DNA of 63,236 bases from Erysipelotrichaceae bacterium (GTDB taxonomy: Bacteria > Bacillota_I > Bacilli_A > RFN20 > CAG-826): positions 1 to 63,236 of the forward strand of contig JALFFX010000005.1 in NCBI GenBank assembly GCA_022777645.1, given 5' to 3'. The notes under the pieces were generated by a model. That model saw only the letters and a list, made by a program, of their open reading frames with translations, ran no database searches and was not told where the DNA came from. The translations under genes and the position numbers were made by a program. This document shows, in pieces, positions 4,601 to 19,834 of the stretch. Numbering within the stretch: the first letter of the stretch is position 1; each line of letters starts with the position of its first letter.

Positions 4601-4730
4601 TTTCAATATCTATATCTTTAATTCCGATGTAATAGTCAGTCGTTTCTTCCTTTTTGTTTACATACGAAATATCCAACCATTTGTTGTGAATAATTGCCTG
4701 ATATATCGAGTTCTTGATTGATAATTTCAT
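1632..4730 (-). CDS. WYL-like N-terminus + SF1 (Upf1/DNA2-like, AAA_11/AAA_12) helicase + C-terminal PD-(D/E)xK (DUF2726/Vsr-like) nuclease
   Basis: Walker A VKGPPGTGKTE, Walker B VIMDESGQ, motif VI NVGVTRAKEKFIFVGD. C-terminus: FDVVVQV...VFEIDGGEH...LDRQKEYICKQYGIKLIRI. N-terminus: WLDISYVNKKEETTDYYIGIKDIDIEKGRIYCDIF (WYL-like). The ATG at 4730 is preferred over the upstream TTG at 4748. Confidence 0.75.
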   Translation of the reverse strand: MKLSIKNSIYQAIIHNKWLDISYVNKKEETTDYYIGIKDIDIEKGRIYCDIFNPFKSTEVIKDKSDTFIYLNGIKSASVLEQSYYDTSKELLTKVTTDKSIGDFLDVVNFDNNILRYLSDCYRMDNDPFLKEIVMVDGIDIHTLSEKGKYELDDKQFNTLLDKIFKKTKYEAEIINRYQTLAINKFSIDINNKQYVVAYRTLTLNFKNKTLKMSDKSSINKSFLIDGKKVSLGMYLDMDADEFCSTYDKNEEEYKKHIEENFHNGEKSNTRPTIFFLMRDSQRGVDQAFEAIHEMDQEGKLSIPLKAFFGRNKSRSGTSKEVNLVVFNRNKINIDQMRVVYNSMVNHVTYVKGPPGTGKTETIFNVLLSAYANDKTVLVCSNNNHPVNDIFKKMDGSLSIKRPFSTETEKIIFPMIRLGNNIETQETIRKLREIMNFVSRHEKSRVQEELTEASKNRSLSGFKELKNLLMEYESQVDLKERIETLQKIRKLTTIGQINGKLDDQIGAYQAKLNNARVIKDEDVLKYAISASEDKNFQNYVYYSSLLRFKRLSNDTYKELRDIIAIDDLEEGVRQFNKYLRNDTNLRRLLAIFPLVICTNLSCEKLGSPKPQFDLVIMDESGQCNTATSLIPIVRGTDLLLVGDTNQLQPVTVIEQDVNELLMDQYGVGEEYDYVHNSILSTMLRKDNNSKNILLRYHYRCGRKIASFVNQRFYEQQLKLLNDNNGDLVYYDVHNTYNPEARNSYREEAAQIAKIIKENGYEDVGIITPFVNQAALVNDLLMKNGVNNVRAGTIHTLQGSEKSVIIMSAALSPRTGKKTMDWIKNNHELINVGVTRAKEKFIFVGDKEAIDKLSGEETNDIKVLSDYVYKNGEIIVPKSDAVISYDFSNDSKNEKDFFDTVQPYFNRRGSKFRVERNVPVKEAIKAINTDDLKLMGKKEFDVVVQVSGGFLNRQYHTIVVFEIDGGEHIGSKRTAQLDRQKEYICKQYGIKLIRIPNSAVKDYESIISLFEFVVKDLPNIEEAYTQMSLFDEE

Positions 4731-4925
4731 GGATGTTGTCCTATGCAATCTCTTTAGATTTAATTAAATCGAGAATTGTGTTCAATAATGAAACTGGATA
4801 AATAATAACATCGTATTCTCTGCCACTTCCATCCAAGGATATGTAAATCCTAACTAAAGTTTACTATACCATAATTGCTTTTTCTTATCTATTTGTAGTT
4901 AAGAAGGATAAATTATTGTGAGAGT

Positions 4926-4973: not shown

Positions 4974-6695
4974 TTACTTAGATAATTCTATTTCTATTAT
5001 TAACCCGCAATCTTTTTCGCTAATAATTACATATCCGAAACATGAACAGAAGAAAACTAATCTTTCACGGCTTTTTGTGTTGTCATAAAAATATAAGCAG
5101 TCATCGGTATCCGGCAAATGAACTTGAATGACTCTGATGCTTTGAATCTCGAAATTAGTAATCTCATTGAACATTGTCACATCGAAGAACGAATTCTTGA
5201 TATAAGCATTTTTCTTTGCTAATTCTTTTTTATCGTATTTCGGATAATCATCAATTACTTTATCCGTGTAATTAATGGCGATTTTATATTTTATTTTAAG
5301 AATCTTATTAATTAAGAATTCGCGTTTATACTCTTTGAAATTATTAAAAACATCTTTTTGATTACGTTCTAAAAAGTCAGAAAGTGATTTGATTGTTTTA
5401 ACAATATATTCCAAAGTAAACTGTCTTACCTCATCTCTATAAATAAGGTAATCATTTAAGACATAACCATGAGCACAAAAGTTCCTCAAATAAATGACTT
5501 CATTTAATATCTCATCTGGTGTATTGATATAGCTTAAGGCTTTAGCTAATGATGTGTAATCAGAACCTCTATTAATTTTTCTTGTTCTATAGATGAAATT
5601 TTCTGTAGCAAGTAATAATCGCGATAGACCATCCGTCATTAAAGATGACATGATTCTAAAGTCAGACGCTTTGTCTTTAAACATCAAAAGAGCAAGATTT
5701 TTATCAGCGTAAAATTTTGGTCTATTTATTTTTGAAATTATTTCGAATCTATCATTAATTACGGAAGCTGATTCCTTATTAAAAACGGTAATACCTGATT
5801 CATATAAGTAATCAACTAATCCAAAAGGCGGCAACAAATTTGCTAATCTTATGAATTCTTTCTCATCCTCAATCTTTAGAACATAATCATCTTTGTAATA
5901 AGTTCGCGTTAATGATCCTTTTTGAATAATCAATCTCTTGCCATCTAATGTACAATCAACCTTAAAAGTTGGATAAGTTTCTCTGCCTATTGAAATAGAA
6001 TACTTTGTTCCATCAATTGAAGCCTTATCAAAGAGTTCGCCCATTAAAGATGTAGCAATATCACTACCTCTCTTTTTACGTATTTCAATTTCTAAGTTTG
6101 TGTGACTGATTTCATTAACAAATCTTTGACCATCATCTAGCTCATATTTTCCGTTGCTAATAACGCCAATTAAATAGTCATCTTTATTTAAAGTTGCAAT
6201 AGATTGACTTCTTAAAAAACTTAAAACGATAAAAAGCACCCCGGCAACGGTAACCTTATCATCAACTAAGTATTTAATAGATCCGTGAAAATGTTTTTGA
6301 TTTTGTAAGAAAGAAAAATCCGACTCTAAGAAGGATGTATCTTCTTTGCTAATAAAAACATGAGCGTTAATGTTTCTTAATGAAGTTAAATAATAACTCA
6401 ATTTTTCAATATCAACAGAATCACCATTATTAAACATAGTCAAGCAAGCATTTGGATACATTTCTTTTAATTTGTTTTCGTCAACAGAGACCATCGATAA
6501 ATCACAGCCAAAGGTACCTCTTATTGTTCTTTCAATATCAATAATTCCGCTTAAGATATTTGCTTTAAGATGGCTGAAATACGACCTGTCAACAAATTGA
6601 ATTTTGGCTTTATAGAAATCTTGTGCGGTCATGTTTAAGAGTTCTATTACATCGTTAATGTTACTATTGTTTCTGGTTCCAATTTTAAATGCCAT
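4974..6695 (-). CDS. Dual-HEPN protein (two RNxxAH motifs), putative RNase effector
   Basis: R107-NINA-H112 is encoded at 6360-6377 and R404-NFCA-H409 at 5469-5486; I verified both by reverse-complementing the DNA. Strong RBS AAGGAGAA lies 6 nt upstream of the ATG. Confidence 0.6.
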   Translation of the reverse strand: MAFKIGTRNNSNINDVIELLNMTAQDFYKAKIQFVDRSYFSHLKANILSGIIDIERTIRGTFGCDLSMVSVDENKLKEMYPNACLTMFNNGDSVDIEKLSYYLTSLRNINAHVFISKEDTSFLESDFSFLQNQKHFHGSIKYLVDDKVTVAGVLFIVLSFLRSQSIATLNKDDYLIGVISNGKYELDDGQRFVNEISHTNLEIEIRKKRGSDIATSLMGELFDKASIDGTKYSISIGRETYPTFKVDCTLDGKRLIIQKGSLTRTYYKDDYVLKIEDEKEFIRLANLLPPFGLVDYLYESGITVFNKESASVINDRFEIISKINRPKFYADKNLALLMFKDKASDFRIMSSLMTDGLSRLLLATENFIYRTRKINRGSDYTSLAKALSYINTPDEILNEVIYLRNFCAHGYVLNDYLIYRDEVRQFTLEYIVKTIKSLSDFLERNQKDVFNNFKEYKREFLINKILKIKYKIAINYTDKVIDDYPKYDKKELAKKNAYIKNSFFDVTMFNEITNFEIQSIRVIQVHLPDTDDCLYFYDNTKSRERLVFFCSCFGYVIISEKDCGLIIEIELSK

Positions 6696-6831: not shown

Positions 6832-7605
6832 TTATTTAAATGATATTTCTTCATATCCCAAATCTTTAGAAACACATACATGGTCACCATAGATCGGAAC
6901 TAGTTTATCGACTTTAATTAAATCTTTAGCAGGCCCTTCATCACATACAACACCATTATGAATAAGCACAACATTCGCATTTAAGAATAGTGCGTGATTA
7001 GGATTATGTGTGGAAAGAATAATTGTTTTATTTTCTTCTTTAGAAATATCTTTTAGAAGAGATAAGACTAGATTTTGATTCTTCATATCGAGAGCGGATG
7101 TTGGCTCGTCTAGAAGTATTACTGGTGTTTTTTGGATTAAAGCACACGCTATTAAGACTATTTGAAGTTCGCCACCACTTATCTCACCTAGATTCTTATC
7201 TAATAAATGAGTGATATGGAGTTTTTCGGCTGTAGCTTCAACTAGTTCCATTTCTTCTTTGCCAGGATGCTCATAGAATGCGAGCGTGTTTGTAGTTCCG
7301 TAAGATAAATATTGCCTAACAGGAACATCGTTAGTGACATTAGCTTGTTGAGGCACATATGAGAATGTTTTTGCTCTTTCTCTAATCTTCATCTTTTGGA
7401 GGTCAAAGAGGCCATATTCAATAATTCCTTCTAAAGGTTTTTCTAATCCAGCAAGTAGCTTAATTAATGTTGTTTTGCCACAGCCATTTAAGCCGAGCAA
7501 AACATTAACAGAACCTTCTTTGATGTTGAGGTTTATTGAATTTAACACTGGTTTTGCAGCTTTTTTATCATATTTAAAAGATAAATTAGATGTCTTTATG
7601 CTCAT
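6832..7605 (-). CDS. ABC transporter ATP-binding protein (FepC/BtuD-like)
   Basis: Walker A GLNGCGKTT, signature ISGGELQ, Walker B ILLDEPTSALD. Confidence 0.85.
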   Translation of the reverse strand: MSIKTSNLSFKYDKKAAKPVLNSINLNIKEGSVNVLLGLNGCGKTTLIKLLAGLEKPLEGIIEYGLFDLQKMKIRERAKTFSYVPQQANVTNDVPVRQYLSYGTTNTLAFYEHPGKEEMELVEATAEKLHITHLLDKNLGEISGGELQIVLIACALIQKTPVILLDEPTSALDMKNQNLVLSLLKDISKEENKTIILSTHNPNHALFLNANVVLIHNGVVCDEGPAKDLIKVDKLVPIYGDHVCVSKDLGYEEISFK

Positions 7606-8611
7606 TTAACTTACTCCTTTTAACAATTAAAATTACTACAAATATAAGCGTACCAATTAAGCCTGTCACCGCACTTAATGGAATCTCTGAATCAGTAAAT
7701 GTTCTAGAAAGTATATCGACTAAAATCGTAAATGTTCCACCGAAAGTAATGCATAAAGGTATTGTTCTTTTAGCGTCTCTTCCAGCTAGCAAACGTACGA
7801 TATGTGGAATAACTAAACCGATCCAAGATATGGTTCCGCAGAAGCATACAGATATAGCTGTAAGAACAGTTGATAAAACAATAATTAAACCACGATAAAA
7901 GTTATAGTTAATGCCTTTTGTTTGAGCTTCTGCTTTTCCTTGATTAACTAAATTAATTGGATGGGAAATAAGAAGCAAAACAATAACGCAAACAACTACC
8001 ACTCCCATGAGGATGTAATTGCGATTCATATCAGCGCTTTCGAATGAGCCCATCAACCAATATGTAATACTAGCGAGTGTTGTAATATCGGACGAAAAGT
8101 ATTTGATCATCGATAAGATTGCGGACATGAATCCACCAACTATAATGCCAGACAAGAGCAAAATAGTTGATGAACCATTTCTAAATAGTTTCGATATCAA
8201 CACTGTTGCAAAAACAGTTAATAAACCTATAACAAATGCAAATACACTAATTAATGCAGATGACAATCCAAGAACAATAGCAAGTGCTGCACCTACTGAC
8301 GCTCCAGTACTAACACCTAATAAATCAGGCGATACCAATTTGTTTCTAAATGTTTCTTGGTAAAGTAAACCAGATAACGACAAGCCGATTCCAACAAATG
8401 CGGCCATTATCGTTCTAGGAAATCTAAGGTTAGTAATAATACTTCTTTGTGTATCTAATGATGAATCATCAGTAAAGACAGCCTTGAAGAAATCTCCAAT
8501 TCCGATTTTGTATCTGCCAAGCATTAATGCAAGAGCAAATATAATAGCAAATACGGCTATAGAGATAATAAATGATATTATTGTTCTTCTTTTTAATACT
8601 TTCTCATTCAT
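7586..8611 (-). CDS. FecCD-family ABC permease
   Basis: Polytopic membrane protein with an RFPRTIMAAFVGIGLSLSGLLYQ-type FecCD signature. Its start overlaps the upstream stop (TAATG). Confidence 0.85.
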   Translation of the reverse strand: MNEKVLKRRTIISFIISIAVFAIIFALALMLGRYKIGIGDFFKAVFTDDSSLDTQRSIITNLRFPRTIMAAFVGIGLSLSGLLYQETFRNKLVSPDLLGVSTGASVGAALAIVLGLSSALISVFAFVIGLLTVFATVLISKLFRNGSSTILLLSGIIVGGFMSAILSMIKYFSSDITTLASITYWLMGSFESADMNRNYILMGVVVVCVIVLLLISHPINLVNQGKAEAQTKGINYNFYRGLIIVLSTVLTAISVCFCGTISWIGLVIPHIVRLLAGRDAKRTIPLCITFGGTFTILVDILSRTFTDSEIPLSAVTGLIGTLIFVVILIVKRSKLNEHKDI

Positions 8612-9675
8612 TAATATAACGAGCCACCTTGTGGATTAAGTCCATTGAGCATATAAGAAACTTGATCATCAGTTAAGTCAGTTCCAAAATACTCTTTAAT
8701 GGTTGTTTTAACCATGTTTGAAATATCATATGAGAAATACTCAGGGTAAATCTTGTTAGCTTGGTCATAGAAGAATATTGGTGTCATAGCGGATAATTGT
8801 TCAAAAGCAGTAAATCCGATTGGGATGTTATAGACTTTATTGTTTTTAACCGCATCTAAATTAGTATATGGCTCTTCTGTTTTGAGGGCGTTGATGTTTT
8901 TGTTTTGATATTGACCACCACATACAAAGATATCTGGATTTTGAGCTACGATTTCTTCTTGAGAAGGTTTGTTTGTTGTTAAGGATGCGCCGATAAAATC
9001 AAATCCTAAAGATCTATATGCATATTCAGTGAAAGATCCTTGGTTGTCAGTATAACCAACACCTTTATCTTTATCTCCACGGACATAAAATACTTTCTTT
9101 TTGGTTATATCGTGCTTAGCTAGCTCAGTAGTTACCTCACTAATTGCGGTTGTGACTTTGTTTTCCCAAACTGCTGCTTTTGCTTTGATATCATCACCAT
9201 CCCAAATCTTAGTGACTAATTGAGATAAAAATGTGACGTAATTGTCAAATGTTGGATTTCCATACAAGGAAACACATAAAGCAGGCACACCGTGTGCATT
9301 TAAATCATCAGCAATGTACTTTTCAGGAGCAAATACTAAATCTACTCCTCTTGATAAGAAGAGCTCACTGCTATTTTGATACTCATATACATAATGATTT
9401 TTACTTTCTGGATAAATCAGTGGTACCCAATCATTATTTAATGTGCCTTTGTAAGCTCCATCAATTTTGTCTCCTAGACCATACGCTACTAATAAGTCAT
9501 ATGTTGTTCTAGAGACGCAAGCTACCTTTTTAGGGTTCTTGTTGATGGTTATGGTTGTGCCGACCATATCGGTTACAGATATTGTTTCTTGAGTTTCACC
9601 CTTATTGGAGCAACCTGTAATAACTCCAAGAGAAGTGACTGCCACTAAAAATGGCAAAAATTTACTTTTTAACAT
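8611..9675 (-). CDS. ABC substrate-binding lipoprotein (PF01497-like; siderophore, heme or B12 class)
   Basis: Lipobox LGVITGCS, followed by KKVACVSRTTYDLLVAYGLGDKIDG, typical of class III binding proteins. Confidence 0.75.
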   Translation of the reverse strand: MLKSKFLPFLVAVTSLGVITGCSNKGETQETISVTDMVGTTITINKNPKKVACVSRTTYDLLVAYGLGDKIDGAYKGTLNNDWVPLIYPESKNHYVYEYQNSSELFLSRGVDLVFAPEKYIADDLNAHGVPALCVSLYGNPTFDNYVTFLSQLVTKIWDGDDIKAKAAVWENKVTTAISEVTTELAKHDITKKKVFYVRGDKDKGVGYTDNQGSFTEYAYRSLGFDFIGASLTTNKPSQEEIVAQNPDIFVCGGQYQNKNINALKTEEPYTNLDAVKNNKVYNIPIGFTAFEQLSAMTPIFFYDQANKIYPEYFSYDISNMVKTTIKEYFGTDLTDDQVSYMLNGLNPQGGSLY

Positions 9676-9855: not shown

Positions 9856-11202
9856 TTAAATTGTGGCTTTAGGTTGTGTTGATACAGCAGCAACGCCATT
9901 GAATGAATTGAGAATCATTTCTACTTCACGCTTAGAAAGTCTCTCTTTTTGCTTTAGCTCTTTATAGATGGCATCAACAAGCGATTTGTTCTCAGAAATC
10001 AATGCTTTAGCTTTTTCAAATGCTTCAGTTAATAAATCGCATTCAAGTTCTTCAATCTTTTCAAGTCTTGTTTCTGAAGTTGGGAAAGATTCGTGGGAAA
10101 ATCTTCCAATTTGAGCGTTCGGTAATAATTTATCAAAGCCAAACGCACCAACATTAACTAGTTGAGAAATGTATTCTCTGGCTTTTCCGATATCATCGCT
10201 AGAACCGCTGGTTACGTCACCACACATAACTTGTTCACCAGCTAAACCACCAAGCATTGTTATTAATTTCTTTTTCAGTGTATCTCTTGTTACAGGCTCA
10301 AATTTAATGATCTCTTTATCATAATAAACATGACCCATAACTCTTCCGAATCTTTCGGTTGAGATAGAACCAACAATGCCACTTTGCTTATATTCTGCAA
10401 TAAAATGACCAATTTCATGATAGCAAGTCATATCACTTGGACCATTTCTGCTCTTCTTTTTGATATCTTGAAACATTACGACAGGGATATTTCTTTCAAA
10501 ATCAGCAAGTGTAATATTTTCAATACCTTGAGAAACACAATCAATAATTGTTTCGTTGATTAGTGTTTTAATATCAGCGCCAGAAAAGTTTGCGGTTTTA
10601 AGTGCCAGCTGATGAGCGTCAATATTGCTTAAGCGTTCGTTTCTTGAAAGATAGAGTTTAATTATTTCTTCTCTATCAATCGTATCAGGCATTTCAACTG
10701 TGATTCTTTTGTCCATTCGCCCACTTCTAATCAAAGCAGGAGGGAGCATTGGACGGTAATTTGTGGTGGCAATGACTAAAATGCCATCACTAGATGAGAT
10801 TCCATCAATTTCTGTTAATAGAATCTTTGTTGTTTTTCTTGAGTAGTCAGATCTGAAATCGGATGTCATGACTAATTCATCAAATTCGTCAATAAATACA
10901 ATTGATGGAGCGTTTTCTCTAGCTTTTGTGAATAACGCTTTAATAGATTTGATGGTTTCGGATTCGGTTTCGCCTTCGTTACTCTCGAATTCAAAGAACG
11001 GGACATTACTTTCGTTAGCTATAGCTTTAGCAAGCATAGTTTTACCCACACCGGGATTGCCGGAAAGGATTAAGCCTTTTGGAATATAGGCACCAATCTT
11101 TTCATACTTTTCGTGATTCTTTAAAACCTCGATTATTTTCTTTGCTTCGGCCTTTTCTTCTTCATAGCCAGCGATATCTTTTAAATAGATTTTATCGGTC
11201 AT
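9856..11202 (-). CDS. Soluble FtsH-like AAA+ ATPase fused to an M41 zinc metalloprotease (no transmembrane segment)
   Basis: Walker A GNPGVGKTMLAK, Walker B IVFIDEFDEL, SRH TTNYRPMLPPALIRSGRMDKRI, zinc site HEIGH, and GSSDDIGKAREY matching the FtsH G-x-x-ND-I-x-x-AT region. The protein starts directly at the AAA module. Confidence 0.75.
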   Translation of the reverse strand: MTDKIYLKDIAGYEEEKAEAKKIIEVLKNHEKYEKIGAYIPKGLILSGNPGVGKTMLAKAIANESNVPFFEFESNEGETESETIKSIKALFTKARENAPSIVFIDEFDELVMTSDFRSDYSRKTTKILLTEIDGISSSDGILVIATTNYRPMLPPALIRSGRMDKRITVEMPDTIDREEIIKLYLSRNERLSNIDAHQLALKTANFSGADIKTLINETIIDCVSQGIENITLADFERNIPVVMFQDIKKKSRNGPSDMTCYHEIGHFIAEYKQSGIVGSISTERFGRVMGHVYYDKEIIKFEPVTRDTLKKKLITMLGGLAGEQVMCGDVTSGSSDDIGKAREYISQLVNVGAFGFDKLLPNAQIGRFSHESFPTSETRLEKIEELECDLLTEAFEKAKALISENKSLVDAIYKELKQKERLSKREVEMILNSFNGVAAVSTQPKATI

Positions 11203-11321
11203 ATAGACCCCCTTTCATATTTGTAAATCTATCGAAAAAGCCATCATATCCCCGCTAAATTGCAGAAATTAGATGGCAAAACACAATTATTCGTTTTGTT
11301 ATTTTGCTCTCTTCTTTTTAA

Positions 11322-12118
11322 TTAAATCAAAGGCAAAATAGATGTTTGAAGGTCTTCAGGAAGATAGGGCATCACTTTATCTTCATCATAATAAGTTAGT
11401 CCATAATATGCTTCCGCTATTGAACCAGTAATTGCAGCTTGAGTATCACTATCAGCCCCTAAAGAGATGGCTTTTCTAATAGCGTCTTCAAAGCTTGTTG
11501 ATTCAATGAAAGCACATATGGCTTGTGGAACGCTTCCTTGGCATGTTACCCAGTTACCAAGTTCGTCAAGACCATATCCACTCGCTTTAAGCTTTGCGAT
11601 AGACATATCTGCAAGATCAGGGTAATAAGAGATCATTTTAGATTTGATTTCTTCTTTTGATTCACCAGTTCTTGCCATGAATATTGCCACGGCTATTGCT
11701 TCAGCGCCTTTTATGCTTCTGGATGATTGTGTGTAATCTCAGTAGTCAATTTACTCAATTCAATTGTTTCCTCTAAGGTATCACACACCCATCCAACCGG
11801 AGATATTCTCATAGCAGACCCATTTCCATAATTACTTAATGGAGTTGGAACACTGTATTTGAATAACTAGGCATAAAACATTTTTTCCCAACCAAAATTA
11901 GGATGTTTATGAGTTATATCCTTCATGTTTCTGATTAGGGTATTTTTATAATTATCTCTGTTGTTTCTTGTTACCACTAAGGTTAAAGCCACAGCAAGAG
12001 TCATCAATGTATCTTCTGCAAAATGGCAGGATGGATGAAACATCGGGAAGTCATATTCGTTGAACCCAGATAATTCAAACCTGGATCCAACGATAGCACC
12101 ATATATTGCGCCCAGCAT
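11322..12118 (-). pseudogene. ADP-ribosylglycohydrolase (ARH) family gene, disrupted
   Basis: N-terminus MLGAIYGAIVGSRFE..., middle GNGSAMRISPVGW, C-terminus SDTQAAITGSIAEAYYG. An in-frame TAG lies at 11867-11869 and a +1 frame change lies near 11690-11720. Confidence 0.7.
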
Positions 12119-13104
12119 TATTTCTTCTCACACATATCTACAAATTCTTGATATGTAATGATTTTGCCAGCGTATGGGTATCTTAACCCATTAGCTAGTT
12201 GCTCTTTATTCTTTTCATCTAAGACGACAAGGAAGTCGGAACCGTTAATTCTGTCATAAGCAACAAAACCATTTTCTTCAATGAGCCTAATGAGATTCTT
12301 GAGTTCTTCGTGATTCTCTTTCATTTCGCCACTAACGGTCACAAATTTGCCAATTGAGTTCGCGTCTTCAAGCAATGGTTCGTGTTTACGATATAATTCG
12401 CCCCATAATACTTGTCCTTCATCTCTTTTGGCTTTGTTCTTGCGACCTTGTTCTCTAGCCTTTCGTCTTTCTTTTCTTAGTGGTTCATCAGCTTTATATC
12501 GTTCCCAATACTCTAAAGCCATTATTTTTGATTTTGGACACGCTTCAATCATGTCATTAACTGAGAACTCTAAGTCTTTCAACATAGCAGCAAAGACAAG
12601 CATAGTCTTATATGCATCATCAACAGCTCTATGATCTTTTAGTTCGTTTCTAATATGTTCAGGAACCAATTCAAGGAAAGCTTTTTCTAAAGATGTAAAC
12701 TTACTGTTCTTTCTTGAGAATTCAGGTAGCATCTTTTGAATGTCATAAACTACATAATCAAATGGTTTAAGTTTATAAATAGGGCGGTTGCAATCTTTGA
12801 TAATGAATCTAATATCGTTTTCTACACCATGACCAAAGATTAATAAATCTGGTTGAGTCATGAGGAACTTGATATTGTCATAAGCATCATCAAAAGCGGG
12901 ATGTTTGTAATACTCTTCATATGGATATGTAAGTATTAGGTCCTTCTGCCCTGTTCTTCCAGTCAAATTAAATTTGCACTCAGGGTTAATAAGTGTGTTT
13001 GTTTTCTTTATGATTCTAAACTGTTCATCACAAAGGACAAATCCGAACTCACAAATAGCTTTATTGCCATCTGCACATTCGATATCGAAAAATAAGTATC
13101 GCAT
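12118..13104 (-). CDS. DEDDh (DnaQ-like) 3'-5' exonuclease with a BRCT-like C-terminal domain
   Basis: ExoI FFDIECA, ExoII FGHGVENDIRF, ExoIII HRAVDDAYKT. C-terminus: VTVSGEMKENHEELKNLIRLIEENGFVAYDRINGSDFLVVLDE...AGKIITYQEF. Its stop overlaps the ARH start (TAATG). Confidence 0.7.
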   Translation of the reverse strand: MRYLFFDIECADGNKAICEFGFVLCDEQFRIIKKTNTLINPECKFNLTGRTGQKDLILTYPYEEYYKHPAFDDAYDNIKFLMTQPDLLIFGHGVENDIRFIIKDCNRPIYKLKPFDYVVYDIQKMLPEFSRKNSKFTSLEKAFLELVPEHIRNELKDHRAVDDAYKTMLVFAAMLKDLEFSVNDMIEACPKSKIMALEYWERYKADEPLRKERRKAREQGRKNKAKRDEGQVLWGELYRKHEPLLEDANSIGKFVTVSGEMKENHEELKNLIRLIEENGFVAYDRINGSDFLVVLDEKNKEQLANGLRYPYAGKIITYQEFVDMCEKK

Positions 13105-13251
13105 AAATATACCTCTCTTTCTTGCGGGATACAGATATACTCGTAGTTAGCGAGAAATATCCTATAGGAAGTTTTGTTCATATTTTATATAGGAATATAA
13201 AATTTAAAGACTAGTTTACCGTAAGTTTTTTGATGTTTTTAAGAAAACGAT

Positions 13252-16050
13252 TTAGTCTTTTCTATTATAGTTATATTTATTAAATAAGGTATACTGCGCT
13301 CTTTCGCCAGGTGCGGTTTTTCTTAAAGTTGGCAAAGCTCTAACATCGTCATTAAATAGTGATTTAAGAGTATAGCCCAACTTGTCTGAGAAATTACTAA
13401 TGATGTAAAGGAAAATGAAACTTTTTGAATAGCCATCATCTCTTTTTTCTAGCGCTTTAATAATTAATTTTGCTTTTTCCGGAGTATTTATTTTTCGTTT
13501 GAGTTCTATGTACGCTTTTTTGATTGCATTATTAAAATTCATTTTCTTCAATTCAAAATCATTATTCCTACTTTGATCTCTGATCTTGGTCACTGCTTCA
13601 TTAGTTGCATCCAATATTTCAATTGCCTCTCTAACTTGCGCGTAAACAGGCCCAGAAATATTTTTTGTATCAAGCCCTTCACAAATTAGGTCAAAGAATG
13701 GAATTGTTTTTGTTCTAATATCACTGTCAAATTTATTTCTACTTACGGCATCCCATAAGTAATCCATTGCCGTTTTAAACTCTCGCTCTTTATTACTTTC
13801 TTCTTTGATTTTACTGATCTTTGGCTTATGGCCATTCTTTTTAGTTACAACAGTAAAGAATAACGGCTTTGTTTTTAGGAGCCCATTTACCTTAGCGTAT
13901 TTTCTTAATCTGTTATATTCTGTTGTTGTATTGAATGGAAATGAGCGTTTGGCGCTATCAATTTCTGCACCAGATAAAACCGATAAAATAGCTATTTGAT
14001 TATATAACTCTTTGTAAGCTTTATTTTTTCCATTACCGAATTTATTCCATAAGTGGCTATTTAACAATTGAGACAAATTAACTATCTTTCCAACATTATT
14101 GTTAGCAATCTCGTTATCGATCGTATAAAGATTCAAAATTAAGTTAGTTTTCTCATCATGACATTTGAAATCTTTTAAAGGTTTTTTCTGCGAACCAAAA
14201 CCAGTAAAAGGAACAGGGAATAAACTATAATTCTTTTCGGCAGCAGCAACAAGGATATCGTTATCTGTTAAGAGCATTGAATCTGAGTCATAATCACACC
14301 CACTTAACCTCTGCTGAATATTGTTGTTAATAGCGTCAACTACCACTATTTGCTTGGTAAGATTGAAATACTGATTAATTTCTTTTAATTCTTTATTCTC
14401 AACCAATAAGACATTACCCATTGTTGTATGAGGCGCTCTGGAACCAACAAGCTTCTTTCCATTTTCAAAGAACGAACAACATATTTCTCCATCTTTCAAC
14501 AAAGAGGACGGACAGTTAGGATCAAAGCTTTTAATAATATATTTTAAATATTCATAAGGATTTCCAAACAAAGTTGCATATGTTCCATTAACAAGGACTT
14601 TTCCGTTATAAAGTTTTAAAAGTAAGCTATCAACTACACTACTGAAAACGCGTTTTTTAAACAAATCTGTGTGTCTAACTCTTCCATCAATTTTTATTAG
14701 TTCAAGACACACTTTGTTCTTAAAAGAATAGCTCGAGTAATTAAGTAGTTCTTTTTCAGCATTAATATCATTGGTATCCTTTGAATCATCGCTGTAGTCG
14801 TCATATTGATTCCCTGTGTCTTCACCCTCTAAATAAAAGCGAATAAACTCAGGCGTGTTTTTAATATCTCTAATGAGTTTAATATATTCAAAATAAAGAT
14901 GAACAAAGTTGCTTACATTATTTTGCTTTAGCTGAAGTGAATTAAGTAGTTGATAAGTTGTTTCCACCATTTCGCCATCAAAAAATCTGGTAGGCTTGTC
15001 TGTTTTAACAACGCCGAATTTTGTTTCATCTGTGTTGATTTCGTCACACCATCTCTTAATATTTTCTTTAGAAAAACCGCCGTCACACATCTTTAGATAT
15101 TTGAGGCACGATTCACTAGCCACCAAGACAATATCATCTATAGATTTTGCAAATGTAACGCCATTCAATTGATCAAGACTAGTTATGTTGTTGTCTTTAA
15201 ACCATTTTTTTAGATTTGTGTTAAAGGCGCAGCACTTAAAGAAACGACTTCTTAGCAGCATCATTCCTTTCTTTTGCTTTTTTATTTTTCTAAAAACACT
15301 TTCATCAAGTAGCCCTTCGCCATCAAAAATATTGTTCTCGACATCACATATAGATTCTTCGGCATTGAGTCCACTCTTTTTGTCGTGATAAACCCTAACA
15401 ACGTTTTGGTTCTTTAGAGTTACCTTCACGTCTTTAACAAACAAAATATTGTATGGATTTAAGTCTAATGTGGTAATGACACTACTTAACGATAAAGCTC
15501 TGTAAGCTTCATACGATGTTAAATCTTTAAAACACAAGTCTTTAAATTCATCCAATCCAGCTCTTGACCATTTGGTCATCATAGGAGAAAGATCTTTTTT
15601 AATGAATAAGCAACTTCCGCCTTTAGCAGCTCCGCTTGAACGTTTATATCTAACATACTTTTTTCCATTCAAGACAAAACCATTTAGGTATAGATACTTT
15701 CTAATATCTTGAATAGGTATCTTTGTTTCAAACTTCTTGGTTGGAATAACCTGTTCTTTCTTCTTATTTACATAAAGGGGGTATTTAAATGAGACGTTGA
15801 CAAAAACATCAGAGTAATACTCTTCCCCTAACTTTTTGAGCGTTAGTTCCTTTTTGCTTTCTAAATAATATAAATCTAGGTTAGGCGGCACAATGTCTGA
15901 ATACTTGTCGTTAAATTCATCCTTGCCATTCTTGATTTCTATTGGCTTATTGTAGATTGATGAGTAATAAAGGTCTGCAGCTTCTATTTCAATAAATCTA
16001 ATATTATCCATATAGATAAGTTTATCATTTATGGGCTTAAAACTCGTCAT
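13252..16050 (-). CDS. Eukaryotic-type RdRP / YonO-like two-barrel (DPBB) polymerase homolog
   Basis: Ordered motifs: RSSGAAKGGSCLF (aa 137-149), FDGEGLL (242-248), LLRSRFFKCCAF (265-276), GSRAPHTTMGNVLLV (536-550), SGCDYDSDSMLL (583-594). DYDSD is encoded at 14281-14295 and was verified on the DNA. Confidence 0.55.
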   Translation of the reverse strand: MTSFKPINDKLIYMDNIRFIEIEAADLYYSSIYNKPIEIKNGKDEFNDKYSDIVPPNLDLYYLESKKELTLKKLGEEYYSDVFVNVSFKYPLYVNKKKEQVIPTKKFETKIPIQDIRKYLYLNGFVLNGKKYVRYKRSSGAAKGGSCLFIKKDLSPMMTKWSRAGLDEFKDLCFKDLTSYEAYRALSLSSVITTLDLNPYNILFVKDVKVTLKNQNVVRVYHDKKSGLNAEESICDVENNIFDGEGLLDESVFRKIKKQKKGMMLLRSRFFKCCAFNTNLKKWFKDNNITSLDQLNGVTFAKSIDDIVLVASESCLKYLKMCDGGFSKENIKRWCDEINTDETKFGVVKTDKPTRFFDGEMVETTYQLLNSLQLKQNNVSNFVHLYFEYIKLIRDIKNTPEFIRFYLEGEDTGNQYDDYSDDSKDTNDINAEKELLNYSSYSFKNKVCLELIKIDGRVRHTDLFKKRVFSSVVDSLLLKLYNGKVLVNGTYATLFGNPYEYLKYIIKSFDPNCPSSLLKDGEICCSFFENGKKLVGSRAPHTTMGNVLLVENKELKEINQYFNLTKQIVVVDAINNNIQQRLSGCDYDSDSMLLTDNDILVAAAEKNYSLFPVPFTGFGSQKKPLKDFKCHDEKTNLILNLYTIDNEIANNNVGKIVNLSQLLNSHLWNKFGNGKNKAYKELYNQIAILSVLSGAEIDSAKRSFPFNTTTEYNRLRKYAKVNGLLKTKPLFFTVVTKKNGHKPKISKIKEESNKEREFKTAMDYLWDAVSRNKFDSDIRTKTIPFFDLICEGLDTKNISGPVYAQVREAIEILDATNEAVTKIRDQSRNNDFELKKMNFNNAIKKAYIELKRKINTPEKAKLIIKALEKRDDGYSKSFIFLYIISNFSDKLGYTLKSLFNDDVRALPTLRKTAPGERAQYTLFNKYNYNRKD

Positions 16051-16123
16051 ATTTATTAGAGTATCGTTTTTCTTACTGCTTATGTTGTTTTGTCCCCATA
16101 TTGGTTACAAAAAAATCTACCGA

Positions 16124-16327
16124 TTACTCGATAGAAATTCTTGTAATGTCGAGAAGCTTGCAAATCTTGAAGAATGTGTCAATGTCTGTACCGCGATTTA
16201 GAATTCTGGAAACGGTCTTACGACTTGCGCCTAACTTCTTGCCGAAATTAGTTTGATTCTTATATTTGTCTTTGATTCGACATTTAATTTCTTCCATCAC
16301 TTTAGCGGAAGAGAAGCAATCATTCAT
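16124..16327 (-). CDS. Small Xre/Cro-type HTH protein
   Basis: NQTNFGKKLGASRKTVSRILNRGTDIDTFFKICKLLDI. Strong RBS GGAGGAGGAAAG. Confidence 0.65.
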   Translation of the reverse strand: MNDCFSSAKVMEEIKCRIKDKYKNQTNFGKKLGASRKTVSRILNRGTDIDTFFKICKLLDITRISIE

Positions 16328-16380
16328 AAATCTTTCCTCCTCCGTAAAACTGAGGTTAGATTAATGATTGCTCAACTATT

Positions 16381-17346
16381 TTATATCAAATCAAAATAAT
16401 TGTCTTTTAAAATTCTCAATAGCGATTCGTCAGAGTTCCACCAAGACTCACCAGGTTCTTCGTCATAAACCAATTTGCAGAACTCTTTTGAAAACTCTAG
16501 CAGATTATTTAGGATGTCATCTACAAACGTTGGACCTATCTTAAGCCAATGTCCTGCATACATGCCATTTTCGTATGGTTTGCCTGCTTCTTTTTTTGAA
16601 TAAACATGCTGTGCCAAAAAAGCCTTTAAGTTCGCATCTTTTTCTCTAGAATTACACGCAATGGATAAATATGATTTCACAGTATTGTGTTTTAAGAAGT
16701 TATCAATTTTGTTCAATAAATCAAAGTACTTGAAATGTTGAAGTTGAAAAAGCGGATTCGTTTCAGCACTTGTGGCGCCAGTCTTTGCTTGAACATAGTC
16801 ACAAAATGATCCAAACGTAAAATCATAGTTGTTTGGATAGCCACGGTCTTTTATAACAACAAGAAGAGCACGGAAGTACTCGGCAAATATTTTTTGAATA
16901 TACTGAAGGTGAATGCTTTTAATTACTTCATCGTATTTATTCTCTCTTCTTAAGCTTTCCCTTAAAGCTTCAAATTCAATTTCTTCCATATCTTCTCCAG
17001 GTGAAGAGGAAAACATTAACTGACTAGTTCTGGATTGATCATAAACTTGTCTTGGGGTTGTCAAACCCTTAATAGCATCTTTGTATTCTGTGTTCCAATC
17101 TTTAGCCAATATATTAAGTTGCGTTCTTAACAGATTGATTGCCCATTCACTTTCGCTTTTATGTTTTGGAACAAAATAATGGGTGTTTCTCGGCATTGAA
17201 AACATTGCTTCAGGAAAAGACCCATCACAATGGAGTTTCTTTAATCTTTTGGTGTCAATATGATATCTTCCATCTTTTAAATGGAAACCATAATAGGTGT
17301 AGTCACTTGGACTATATTTAGAATAGTCGAATAATTCTTTAGCCAT
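16381..17346 (-). CDS. Hypothetical protein (no recognisable domain)
   Basis: Long ORF. I prefer the ATG at 17346 (MAKELFDYSKY) because AAAGAGG lies 7 nt upstream. Confidence 0.5.
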   Translation of the reverse strand: MAKELFDYSKYSPSDYTYYGFHLKDGRYHIDTKRLKKLHCDGSFPEAMFSMPRNTHYFVPKHKSESEWAINLLRTQLNILAKDWNTEYKDAIKGLTTPRQVYDQSRTSQLMFSSSPGEDMEEIEFEALRESLRRENKYDEVIKSIHLQYIQKIFAEYFRALLVVIKDRGYPNNYDFTFGSFCDYVQAKTGATSAETNPLFQLQHFKYFDLLNKIDNFLKHNTVKSYLSIACNSREKDANLKAFLAQHVYSKKEAGKPYENGMYAGHWLKIGPTFVDDILNNLLEFSKEFCKLVYDEEPGESWWNSDESLLRILKDNYFDLI

Positions 17347-17664
17347 ACATAAACCTCTTTCATCCTTACTTTGTCTACTTATGCTATATGCAGCACACCA
17401 CTCCTTGAACACGTCAACATAGGCGTCGCAATGGAAACAACTTAATATCCTTGCTCCTGCTGCGAATTTATACTATCACATCATCTAATCAACTCCAACT
17501 TTTGTCCCCAAAAATGTCCCAAGGATAAGCAAAAAAGAAAACCATAACACTAAGTGTTATTTATCCACAACCTTCCTCAATGGTGGTAGTAATGAATGGA
17601 TAATTTAATTTGAAAATCTAATGAAATAATAAAAACTAAAACGTCGTTTTTTACTATCGTTAAA

Positions 17665-18324
17665 TTATATGATAATCCTATAGCCTATTCCGATTTCAGT
17701 ATGGATATAATTATGATTATTTATGCATAATTTTCGTCGTAAATTCAAAATGAAAACGCGAAGAGATTGATATTCATCAAGCGAATCATAACCCCAAACT
17801 TCTTTTTGAATATATTTATGTGTTAACACCCTTTCTTTGTTATTTATAAACAAAGACAACATCTTAAATTCCAATGGCGTAAGATGGATTTCAACATCAT
17901 CTACAAATACTTGGTGTAATGCAAAGTTTACTTTTAAACCTTTGCTTTCAAAAACCTCTTTATTAGCGATATTGTTTCTTCTTAAACAGCCTCTGATTCT
18001 CGCTAACAATTCCTCGCTCATAAAAGGCTTTGTTAAATAATCGTTCGCGTCTAAATCAAGAGCTTTGACTTTATCATCTTCTGCATCGCGAGCAGAAATA
18101 ACAATAATTGGTGTCTGATCAATTTTTCTAATTTGTTTTATCACTTCTAAACCATCTACATCAGGAAGACCTAAATCCAAAAGAATTAATTCAGGTTTAT
18201 CGCTTAAAAAAATAGATAATCCGGTAAGACCATTGCTTGCAACTTTAACTTTGTAATCGTGTGTTTTTAATGTTAACTCTAATAATTTTGCAATTGATTT
18301 ATCATCCTCGATTATCAGTATCAT
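17665..18324 (-). CDS. OmpR/PhoB-family response regulator (KdpE-like)
   Basis: Receiver domain ILIIEDDKSIA...LLDLGLPDVDG...KP, plus a winged-helix C-terminus ending GIGYRI. RBS AAGAGGTG precedes the ATG at 18324. Confidence 0.85.
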   Translation of the reverse strand: MILIIEDDKSIAKLLELTLKTHDYKVKVASNGLTGLSIFLSDKPELILLDLGLPDVDGLEVIKQIRKIDQTPIIVISARDAEDDKVKALDLDANDYLTKPFMSEELLARIRGCLRRNNIANKEVFESKGLKVNFALHQVFVDDVEIHLTPLEFKMLSLFINNKERVLTHKYIQKEVWGYDSLDEYQSLRVFILNLRRKLCINNHNYIHTEIGIGYRIII

Positions 18325-19834
18325 CGTGTTCACCTCTTTTCAATGGAATTCTAAATTTAAATGATGCGCCACCAATATCGTTATTCATAGCTTCGATAAA
18401 TCCGTTATGTATTTCGACGATTGATTTGCATATTATCAGGCCTAAGCCATTTGATCTATAAGCATCTTTCTTTTGAAGAAGTCTTTTATCTTCTTTGAAT
18501 AAATCTTTGATTTTATCAACAGGTATTCCGCCTCCATTATCGCTTATTTCTGCTAACAAATTGTCATTGTTAATGTTAAAGATAACACTAATCGTGCTGC
18601 CAGGTGCAGTGTATTTAATGCCGTTGCTTATTAAGTTAATAAATAATTGGATCATCAGTTGTGCGTTACAATATATCAAAGTTGTTTCATCAACTGTTGG
18701 GTAAATAATTTTCTGGCTAAATTTTTGTTTTGAAAAATATTCTTCAACATTTTGCATAATATCTGCTAAAGATTCATATTCTTTGTTTATTGATTGTCTA
18801 TCAGATATTTTTGACATATTTAATAAATTGTTAACAAAAGAATACAAAGATACCGATTCGTTATAAATATCATCGAGAAGCTCTTTTGTTTCTGTTGCCG
18901 AAATATTATCGAGATTTTCTTTTAAAAACAATGAGCCAGATTGAATTGAAGTCAAAGGTGTTTTTAAATCGTGCGACAAACTCCTTAAAAGCGTTGATTT
19001 AAAATGCTCTCTCTCACTTTTGTGTTCACTTTTTTCTTGTTCTTGGATTGCACGTTCTCTTTCTAAGACGACAGCCGCTTCTGTCGATATACTTTTGATA
19101 AAATTAAATTCAGAATCACTAAAAGAATTTTTGATTAATCTAATAAATATATAACCAAATTTTACCGATTTTGATCTTATCGGAAATACTAAAAAATTAT
19201 TTGATGAGTATACTGGTTGGTTATAACCGACAATTGTAAATTGATTAACAGAAAAATCGCATGCTTCCATTTCCTCATTGCTGAGTGAAGTTATATTGCC
19301 ATACGTCTTATTTAAGAACAGATTTTTCAATAAAAATTTATTTTTGATGTTTTCTTCTAAACATGCGGTAATGCAATTATATATTTCATCTTCATCGTGG
19401 CAATTAAGAAATTTTTTTGATAAATCAAACAATATATTTATTCTCTTTTCGTTTTCTTGTGATTGTTTTACTTCTTTTTGAAGTTGAATAACAATGCTAC
19501 CAAATATGATGGCAATGATAATGAAGAATCCAAATGAAATATAATAATTTAAATCATCCATTACAAAAGAGTATTGGGGTTCAGTTAAAAAGAAATTAAA
19601 CGCCAAACACAGAAAAGCACATGAAATAATACTATAGATGATCGATTTTGTTTCAATTGTAATTATTAACACCGCCAAAATGAAAAGAATAAAGATGTTT
19701 TCATCGTGTATATAGCTTCGATTTAACACGAGCATCAATCCAATCGCTAAACCGTTTATTAATAGCGTAATAAGGATATTGAACAATAAAGTGTTTCTTT
19801 TAAATAATTTTCGTTTTTGCATAAGGATAATCAC
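18302..19834 (-). CDS. Sensor histidine kinase, KdpD C-terminal type (membrane + HisKA + HATPase_c), lacking the KdpD N-terminal domain
   Basis: Four N-terminal TM helices, H-box SHDLKTPLTSI, G-box NGLGLIICKSIVEIHNG. The start may instead be the ATG at 19822. Confidence 0.8.
   Translation of the reverse strand: MIILMQKRKLFKRNTLLFNILITLLINGLAIGLMLVLNRSYIHDENIFILFILAVLIITIETKSIIYSIISCAFLCLAFNFFLTEPQYSFVMDDLNYYISFGFFIIIAIIFGSIVIQLQKEVKQSQENEKRINILFDLSKKFLNCHDEDEIYNCITACLEENIKNKFLLKNLFLNKTYGNITSLSNEEMEACDFSVNQFTIVGYNQPVYSSNNFLVFPIRSKSVKFGYIFIRLIKNSFSDSEFNFIKSISTEAAVVLERERAIQEQEKSEHKSEREHFKSTLLRSLSHDLKTPLTSIQSGSLFLKENLDNISATETKELLDDIYNESVSLYSFVNNLLNMSKISDRQSINKEYESLADIMQNVEEYFSKQKFSQKIIYPTVDETTLIYCNAQLMIQLFINLISNGIKYTAPGSTISVIFNINNDNLLAEISDNGGGIPVDKIKDLFKEDKRLLQKKDAYRSNGLGLIICKSIVEIHNGFIEAMNNDIGGASFKFRIPLKRGEHDDTDNRG

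Follow-up and report, generated by a model that had tools for sequence, protein, structure and literature searches.

A chromosomal YonO/QDE-1-type polymerase recurrently linked to peptidase genes in a modular locus of Erysipelotrichaceae

Introduction

YonO is a processive DNA-dependent RNA polymerase that transcribes the late genes of phage SPbeta without proofreading (PMC5467207). YonO-like proteins are also encoded in bacterial chromosomes, where their role is an open question on which Forrest et al. 2017 speculated only, and DNA-dependent RNA synthesis has been demonstrated for YonO itself alone (PMC5467207). Here we analyse one such chromosomal gene in a 63,236-nt stretch of DNA from an Erysipelotrichaceae bacterium (assembly GCA_022777645.1, contig JALFFX010000005.1, positions 1 to 63,236; hereafter the window), where it sits in a six-gene cassette on the minus strand (9856-17412). 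An initial reading of the sequence alone had proposed this cassette as a candidate undescribed nucleic-acid conflict system.

Several described systems share parts with the cassette. Polymerases resembling RNA-dependent RNA polymerases (RdRPs) occur in 'novel selfish elements', where, as summarised in PMC3417536, their partners are a restriction endonuclease (REase), a URI endonuclease and RNase H, and a primase-like role in mobility was proposed. For host systems centred on ARG, the predicted role is the removal of ADP-ribosylation imposed by viruses (Iyer et al. 2022, PMC9503650). Our search of the literature, in which Iyer & Aravind 2011 was covered through the summary in PMC3417536, found nothing linking these polymerases to proteases, DEDDh exonucleases, ADP-ribose hydrolases or defence. 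The association that we describe below is real and recurrent, is built from known families and is apparently undescribed.

Results

A two-barrel polymerase followed by peptidase genes

All six open reading frames (ORFs) of the cassette were recovered from the ORF list of the window at the places where the sequence-only reading had put them, and all are intact except the gene for an ADP-ribosylglycohydrolase (ARH). The polymerase gene (13252..16050, minus strand) encodes a YonO/QDE-1-type single-subunit two-barrel RNA polymerase of 932 aa, which matches phrog_8308 (2e-83) and, weakly, phrog_4291 'RNA-dependent RNA polymerase' (6e-6). It has no Pfam match, and a sequence-profile search of the PDB returned only noise. 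In an alignment of 27 homologues, D586-x-D588-x-D590, R538-x-P540 and K349/D351/K352 are invariant, and we infer that the non-Asp positions map onto the eight published invariant residues of the family. A profile of these 27 sequences aligned with SPbeta YonO by hhalign (probability 97.2%, E 4.8e-11, 531 columns), placing the DYDSD of the polymerase on the DNDGD of YonO. In Foldseek searches with an AlphaFold2 (AF2) model (pLDDT 85.4, pTM 0.83), the top 21 PDB matches were all plant RDR2 or fungal QDE-1 (E 2e-15 to 3e-11), with TM scores of 0.46-0.51 over about 900 columns. Because the alignment, the YonO profile match and the structural matches agree, the protein is a genuine two-barrel polymerase of the RdRP/YonO family whose catalytic triad is intact, and by analogy with YonO it may carry out DNA-dependent RNA synthesis.

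We then surveyed the genomic context of the family, which comprises 1,385 homologues at 90% clustering among the candidates scored. The survey covered 241 loci (designated L with a number) from species-representative genomes, IMG/VR and metagenomes, plus individual protein look-ups, with ORFs clustered, clades defined by average-linkage clustering of the polymerases and flanks examined to 10 kb. A metagenome scan with a single polymerase sequence returned nothing; a profile scan did return loci. Peptidases were counted over independent lineages of the window clade and a small sister clade that had at least 2 kb of downstream sequence. A peptidase-type gene lay within 2.3 kb downstream of the polymerase in 14/14 lineages, on the polymerase strand in all 13 lineages where it was located by tblastn. 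In nine of the 14 it was a soluble FtsH-like AAA/M41 protease, in three an HslV/proteasome-like subunit (alongside an AAA ATPase in L086 and the FtsH-like protease in L163), and in five F6, a protein of about 320 aa whose HELGH motif is invariant; F6 was the sole peptidase in three. The link holds across 37-100% polymerase identity, with non-homologous peptidases of three kinds. The order polymerase, DEDDh exonuclease, ARH, FtsH-like protease appears again in L084 (66% polymerase identity), and the order polymerase, DEDDh, FtsH-like protease in L003 (68%), so that the linkage, which the sequence-only reading had wished to see checked in other genomes, recurs there and is not a matter of chance. 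One function filled by non-homologous proteins is a classical sign of functional coupling. Since non-homologous peptidases substitute at the same place, coupling of polymerase and peptidase is reasonably supported.

The F6 protein has no Pfam match. It is found together with a 154-aa NADAR protein just downstream of the polymerase in L166 (3616-5035), L167 (6838-8281), L168 (12882-14322) and L004 (13780-15177). We considered DarT as its identity and rejected it, as F6 shows no similarity to DarT and carries the invariant HELGH motif instead. In more distant loci of Clostridia the polymerase is followed by an AAA ATPase whose pore loop is intact and by as many as four genes for subunit-like proteins of about 190 aa, one of them matching Pfam Proteasome (HslV-like). 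An FtsH-like protease, a Ser/Thr kinase and vWA proteins accompany them in some of these loci. These sets (L013 13003-19026; L022, L044, L173) resemble a proteasome-like machine.

The window protease (9856..11202, minus strand) is a soluble FtsH-like AAA+/M41 metalloprotease of 448 aa (Pfam AAA 1e-33, Peptidase_M41 1e-17). As the sequence-only reading had held, it is soluble: residues 4-432 align to cytosolic constructs of FtsH, and the protein starts at the AAA domain, with neither an N-terminal membrane anchor nor any other membrane segment. Its similarity to FtsH spans the full AAA and M41 regions, with the Walker A/B motifs, the arginine fingers, HEIGH and the third zinc ligand (SSDD motif) conserved. 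It differs from FtsH in lacking the transmembrane and periplasmic part and the aromatic motif of pore loop 1, where (residues ~66-90) the FVEMFVGVG stretch of Escherichia coli FtsH is replaced by the acidic NEGETESET. The aromatic motif is missing in all polymerase-linked FtsH-like proteins in which the region is present, and the companion AAA-only proteins of related loci keep the pore loop (KW/F-G). Judged from its sequence, the window protease probably cannot thread substrates by the usual pore-loop mechanism. A further difference from FtsH is that proteases of this type are encoded in variable islands, and that some of the loci also encode HslV-like subunits and a second, separate AAA ATPase that retains its pore loop.

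The polymerase, the exonuclease and the protease are under purifying selection, and the ARH gene is decaying. Comparison of the window with L081, L084 and L003 gave ratios of nonsynonymous to synonymous substitution (dN/dS) of 0.22 for the polymerase, 0.06-0.12 for the DEDDh exonuclease and 0.07-0.10 for the protease.

The protease recurs without the polymerase

The six genes do not form a fixed cassette, as had first been supposed: none of the genomes beyond the window's own species carries the full set. Nor does the polymerase stand at the centre of the locus, as the sequence-only reading had it. The hub is the FtsH-like protease. Six of its homologues are apparently on contigs of polymerase matches, and it is found with other partners where the polymerase is absent. 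In the sister lineage L327-330 (protease 89%, DEDDh 86-88%, ABC importer 87-91% identity) an unrelated 533-aa protein takes the place of the polymerase, and upstream of it lie the same HTH-7xx (HTH-722) and p237/p240 genes that precede the polymerase in L003; HTH stands for helix-turn-helix. L326 (protease 59%) encodes a 542-aa homologue of the 533-aa protein and a u433-like protein, and L337 (protease 60%) has homologues of the window's small HTH protein and of its 343-aa protein (HTH69 and unk343) directly upstream of the protease with nothing between. In L331-334 (protease 50%) the protease is accompanied by DUF4238, an HTH protein, a 52-aa ORF and a translationally coupled DEDDh, near a MazG-like gene, an SLFN-type helicase and a type I restriction-modification (R-M) system. 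Each of the six window genes thus recurs with the protease somewhere, in differing combinations, and from these varied partners of the protease in loci lacking the polymerase we conclude that the cassette is combinatorial, one permutation of a modular locus.

The 533/542-aa protein (L327 3257-4858, L330 1489-3090, L326 8297-9925) is encoded between the p237 gene and the DEDDh gene and, in L326, directly upstream of the FtsH-like protease. It has no Pfam or PADLOC match, and hhalign found no similarity either to the polymerase or to unk343, so that it was rejected as a diverged relative of either.

This combinatorial content would also be expected if the genes had no joint function, with a variable island gathering unrelated accessory genes and the polymerase being a selfish or orphan gene beside a DEDDh/FtsH-like pair. 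Four lineages carry the protease without the polymerase, the unrelated 533-aa protein is swapped for the polymerase in the same frame of genes, a terminator-like site follows the HTH gene of the window, and RdRP-like genes have been described in 'novel selfish elements' (as summarised in PMC3417536). We nevertheless consider such an accidental gathering quite unlikely, given that a downstream peptidase of one of three unrelated families within 2.3 kb in every one of 14 lineages is hard to obtain by chance; three unrelated folds of ADP-ribose hydrolase recur in the same manner, and two features of the exonuclease gene described further below, its translational coupling to ARH and a leader hairpin conserved in four lineages, also speak against it.

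Polymerase clades divide by genomic context

The clades of the polymerase divide cleanly by context. A phage clade (71 loci) is accompanied by terminase, portal and tyrosine integrase genes, two clades of mobilisable elements (52 and 25 loci) by a relaxase with a serine recombinase or tyrosine integrase, and several smaller clades were found on viral contigs only. In the window clade (20 loci from about 13 lineages) the count of recombinase, relaxase, terminase or portal genes is 0, which speaks against the suspicion that the block might be a fragment of a prophage or of an integrative and conjugative element. As an exception, integrase and transposase-type genes flank one locus of the protease that lacks the polymerase (L331/L332). 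The genomes of the window clade, belonging to Erysipelotrichaceae and 'Bacilli', were assembled from metagenomes of rumen and gut. Ordinary genes, GH28 and an esterase among them, are found in the neighbourhood of the polymerase; a small sister clade (L012, L175, L176) has neighbours including recA and addAB.

The relation to YonO is one of shared architecture in a different setting. The window polymerase and YonO are single polypeptides of similar size with the same two-barrel core, including the DxDxD loop, and each has an exonuclease gene close by, although their sequence identity falls below BLAST detection. Unlike yonO, the genes of the window clade lie outside prophages, without structural, lysis or recombinase genes, and are followed by a protease rather than by late genes. 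The exonucleases also differ, the window encoding a DEDDh enzyme and the phage a metallophosphoesterase (Metallophos_2 annotation, TR-TP1). In a cultured Thomasclavelia phage and in SPbeta the order is polymerase, HU/IHF-like protein, exonuclease and then late genes; cultured phages and plasmids yielded merely a handful of distant relatives of the polymerase.

These phage arrangements raise the question of whether the locus is a domesticated or decaying remnant of a 'takeover' module of a phage or mobilisable element, in which the polymerase would be the element's own, the other genes early or anti-defence genes, and mobility lost. Relatives of the polymerase at 25-41% identity lie on viral contigs of 50-170 kb beside terminase and portal genes, or in elements with a relaxase and a serine recombinase. 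A yonO-type gene also lies a few genes upstream of an exonuclease gene in both SPbeta and a cultured phage with an Erysipelotrichaceae host, the ARH of the window is decaying, contigs of relatives break right at the edge of the island, and orphan ADP-ribose hydrolases are known phage counter-defences (as outlined in PMC11825919). Several observations make such an origin unlikely all the same. Within 10 kb, mobility or structural genes number 0 in the 12 loci of the window clade that have at least 5 kb of flank, their neighbours include recA, addAB, glycoside hydrolases and serine hydroxymethyltransferase (SHMT), the polymerase, DEDDh and protease are under purifying selection, and the link to non-homologous peptidases is kept over 37-100% polymerase identity. 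Moreover, the soluble FtsH-like protease was found in just 1/~70 viral loci. A separate scan of viral contigs with an FtsH-like profile and a Walker-B pattern gave 0/80 loci with the polymerase and is uninformative on the subfamily lacking the pore loop.

Known or candidate defence genes surround the loci, which gives them a defence-island-like neighbourhood. Related loci have DarT+Macro, TIR-LRR, NERD, DUF4238, AbiEii, RmuC, an SLFN helicase and type I R-M as defence-type neighbours, and the window has a Mokosh-like helicase. SNF2 helicase, MoxR AAA and DUF2201/vWA genes were found in L083, L163 and several Clostridia loci. The polymerase adjoins addAB-type helicase-nuclease genes or recA in L012 (4300-9950), L167 (8354-10771) and L175 (2246-3226). 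Sigma70-like (295 aa) or small sigma-region-4-like proteins are encoded beside it in L012 (13246-14133), L166 (5051-5560) and L004 (13433-13714); they could be specificity factors, and one of them has, by eye, an alpha-CTD-like C-terminus.

A cellular auxiliary transcription system, in which the polymerase would transcribe a stress regulon and the protease would control the activity of the polymerase or of a specificity factor, has been speculated on for chromosomal YonO-like proteins by Forrest et al. (PMC5467207). It would accommodate the sigma-like proteins beside the polymerase in L012, L004 and L166, the chromosomal setting beside recA or addAB in some lineages, and the purifying selection on the genes. 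Such a system is highly unlikely, however, in view of the patchy distribution of the polymerase and its replacement by another protein, its defence-type neighbours, and the fact that no conserved target genes or promoter were identified.

Exonuclease, ADP-ribose hydrolases and upstream genes

The DEDDh 3'-5' exonuclease (12118..13104, minus strand; 328 aa) matches RNase_T (2.7e-9) and the PADLOC DEDDh model (6.5e-10), with DnaQ, Cas2-DEDDh and the PolC exonuclease as PDB profile matches. Its motifs are intact (D7/E9, D97, H158/D163); among 39 DEDDh homologues, D7, E9, H158 and D163 are invariant and D97 nearly so. The C-terminal domain of about 100 aa, called BRCT-like in the sequence-only reading, had no Pfam or PDB match, and a single-sequence AF2 model of it reached a pLDDT of 40 only. 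Among polymerase loci, the exonuclease occurs in the window, L084 (twice), L003 and L175/176. It is paired with the FtsH-like protease in L084, L003 and L327-330 and, in reversed order, in L331, so that the pairing is still present at 50% protease identity with gene order flipped.

The 147-bp gap between the exonuclease and polymerase genes is real, as is the TCCTATAGGA palindrome within it (13160-13169). The conserved element of this gap is a hairpin in the 5' leader of the DEDDh gene (GGATAT..CTCG-loop-CGAG..ATATCT; 13133..13162, minus strand), 30-60 nt upstream of the start codon, for which RNAalifold predicted 10 pairs, two with compensatory changes, across the window, L081, L084, L003 and L330, a locus that lacks the polymerase. 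The palindrome overlaps the 5' arm of the hairpin and is itself not conserved in L084, L003 and L330. The role of the hairpin could be that of a leader structure, operator or promoter element.

The ARH pseudogene (11322..12118, minus strand; ADP_ribosyl_GH 1.4e-13 on its C-terminal piece) is TAATG-coupled to the exonuclease, its ATG overlapping the DEDDh stop, and is decayed, both as first noted. The damage consists of an in-frame TGG>TAG change at codon 84, a conserved Trp (11867-11869), and a 1-nt deletion near 11715 in the HPEGIKGA motif. L081 shares the deletion, has a second frameshift and retains TGG at the Trp codon; L084 has TGA at the same codon (about 8880-8882), independent of the TAG of the window. 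We considered stop-codon reassignment and rejected it, since the three loci have TAG, TGA and TGG at this codon and long neighbouring genes read with the standard code. ARH is missing from L003 and L327-330. Because it is dead in the window species, independently hit in L084 and missing in these other lineages, ARH is an optional component.

ADP-ribose removers of three unrelated folds recur beside the polymerase: ARH in the window, L084, L083 and L004, Macro in L086 and L003, and NADAR in L004, L003 and L166-168. ARH is paired with HAD in L083 and L004, and L173 encodes a WYL protein.

Upstream of the polymerase, the cassette encodes a small Xre-type HTH protein of 67 aa (HTH67; 16124..16327, minus strand), which matches the phrog_8 transcriptional regulator (7e-6) and, weakly and below Pfam cut-offs, HTH_3, HTH_26 and DUF739. 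Homologous small HTH proteins occur in L337 (42% over 45 aa, E 1e-7) and L168 (42%). The adjacent ORF, unk343 (16381..17412, minus strand), encodes 343 aa from a GTG or 321 aa from the ATG at 17346, and has no Pfam, PHROG, PADLOC or PDB match; homologues of it are encoded in L003 (33%), upstream of the polymerase, and in L337 (33%, E 5e-50), where the FtsH-like protease follows directly. Between the window and L081, unk343 has a dS of 0.20 and 90% amino acid identity, versus a dS of 0.02-0.05 and 97.5-100% identity for its neighbours, which suggests recombination or faster evolution. A terminator-like hairpin lies at 16116-16135, after the HTH gene and before the polymerase gene.

Flanks of the block

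The block is flanked on one side by TrkA/TrkH together with a KdpD-like kinase and response regulator (17665-19834), and on the other by a Peripla_BP_2/FecCD/ABC_tran importer (6832..9675, minus strand; Pfam), as the sequence-only reading had described. Beyond the importer lie a 573-aa protein with no family match (4974-6695), a homologue of which (E 3e-83) adjoins the polymerase in L169, and a 1,038-aa superfamily 1 (SF1) helicase (AAA_11/AAA_12) with a C-terminal DUF2726 (1632-4748), the Mokosh-like neighbour mentioned above (PADLOC MkoC 7e-50, MkoA 4e-42).

The reported absence of mobility genes extends to the whole window, in which the recombinase, relaxase, terminase and portal families built from the related loci have 0 members; tRNA and Rfam searches of the window gave no matches, and no convincing att-like direct repeats were found at the edges of the block. 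That the block was 'inserted' between the two-component system and the importer is not demonstrated. A search for an empty site among homologues of the flanking kinase found none in the three loci checked, two contigs stopping after the response regulator and the third not being syntenic downstream, and no boundaries of presence and absence could be defined from these three relatives. The two truncated contigs (L242 and L245, Trk plus two-component operon, kinase identity 99% and 66%) end within about 100 bp of the response regulator; their ending at the upstream edge of the block suggests strain-level variability there.

The importer may be more than a neutral flank, because it recurs beside the polymerase or the protease in other lineages. 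An importer of the window type is found beside one or the other in L084 (34%), L175 (36%), L168 (76%, upstream) and L327-330 (87-91%), and L169 has its ATPase component only, with the homologue of the 573-aa gene, beside the polymerase. Importer identities (34-91%) are out of step with polymerase identities, and the importer lies upstream in some lineages and downstream in others. With at least five lineages concerned, its presence may reflect a conserved flank, a hotspot of insertion or cargo.

Comparison with described systems

The cassette matches no named system in PADLOC-DB v2, in agreement with the sequence-only reading; no system model of the database fits it, and the matches returned were generic ones to DEDDh, HTH and AAA (IetA, TRIP13) only. 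The closest of these is IetA (5e-30 on the AAA domain), which belongs to a defence-island system, IetAS, that likewise couples an FtsH-type ATPase to a protease. The cassette, however, lacks the IetS subtilase (no S8 peptidase) and has M41 fused to the ATPase, whereas IetAS has neither polymerase nor exonuclease. It differs from DarTG in that the window has no DarT; a DarT+Macro pair was found only in L003, 4 kb downstream of the polymerase.

ARG-centred systems (PMC9503650) resemble the locus in having an ARH without a coupled ADP-ribosyltransferase and, in relatives of the window, in the combination of ARH with a HAD phosphatase and in vWA, Macro or NADAR accessories. They differ in their Nudix or WYL-HTH regulators and in having no polymerase or AAA protease, and the window itself has only the ARH pseudogene, with no Nudix, WYL or phosphatase gene. 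The 'novel selfish elements' share with the locus a polymerase of the same superfamily, encoded in bacterial chromosomes outside phages and beside nuclease genes, but the summary in PMC3417536 mentions no protease, DEDDh or ADP-ribose hydrolase partners.

Among eukaryotic proteins, QDE-1 and RDR2 are the best structural matches of the polymerase (Foldseek E about 1e-15, TM about 0.5), although sequence identity is 11-13% and the DNA in view shows neither Argonaute nor Dicer. In eukaryotes, RdRPs likewise act together with DEDDh exonucleases (QIP, ERI-1). A tie between the locus and RNA interference (RNAi)-like silencing would be an analogy only.

Discussion

We tentatively interpret the cassette as one local combination of a modular chromosomal conflict locus, with the FtsH-like protease as its hub and the polymerase as the most frequent partner of that protease. 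Judging from gene content and context, such a locus would be a conflict or defence module that joins host-independent RNA synthesis with regulated proteolysis, a reading to which we assign a probability of roughly 0.4.

Several points weigh against it. Relatives of the polymerase elsewhere are clearly genes of mobile elements, PADLOC has no model that matches the polymerase, and ARH is dead in the window. Since L327-330, L331, L337 and L326 keep the protease without the polymerase, the latter is dispensable for the rest, and the six genes are probably not one operon because of the terminator-like hairpin between the HTH and polymerase genes. The sample amounts to about 14 independent lineages, nearly all metagenome-assembled, with highly variable neighbours, and part of the pattern could stem from co-location in a variable island. 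Finally, all activities, as well as the direction of the conflict, are read from family membership, linkage, context and selection.

If the locus does act in conflict, the polymerase would, like its phage relative YonO, make RNA without the host RNA polymerase in cells whose transcription machinery an invader has disabled or modified, and its product might be either transcripts of the module itself or RNA copies of invader nucleic acid. The DEDDh enzyme would trim the 3' ends of this RNA or of invader nucleic acid. The protease without a pore loop would serve as a regulated effector or switch, with a repressor (for example, the adjacent HTH protein) or a host or phage protein as possible targets. 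An intact ARH, Macro or NADAR protein would remove ADP-ribosylation imposed by the invader, following the logic proposed for orphan ARG systems (PMC9503650), and this step would have been lost in the window genome.

In a more far-reaching version, which we regard as a long shot, the chromosomal QDE-1/YonO-type polymerases of gut Firmicutes would supply the nucleic-acid synthesis for an immune system of a new class, in which RNA copied from invader nucleic acid, or from damaged or single-stranded nucleic acid, is processed by DEDDh and licenses an AAA+ protease or proteasome-like effector. If true, immunity based on RNA synthesis would be the prokaryotic equivalent, perhaps even the precursor, of the pairing of RdRP and DEDDh exonuclease in eukaryotic RNAi.

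The locus and its relatives provide a concrete, testable lead on chromosomal YonO-like polymerases, whose role has been an open question since they were noticed. If the coupling of polymerase and peptidase is functional, they would represent a conflict system with its own RNA polymerase, an unusual soluble variant of FtsH without the canonical substrate-threading loop and, possibly, a counterpart in bacteria of the RdRP-exonuclease modules in eukaryotic RNA silencing. Should the coupling not be functional, the data would still map the capture of a phage polymerase family into bacterial chromosomes.

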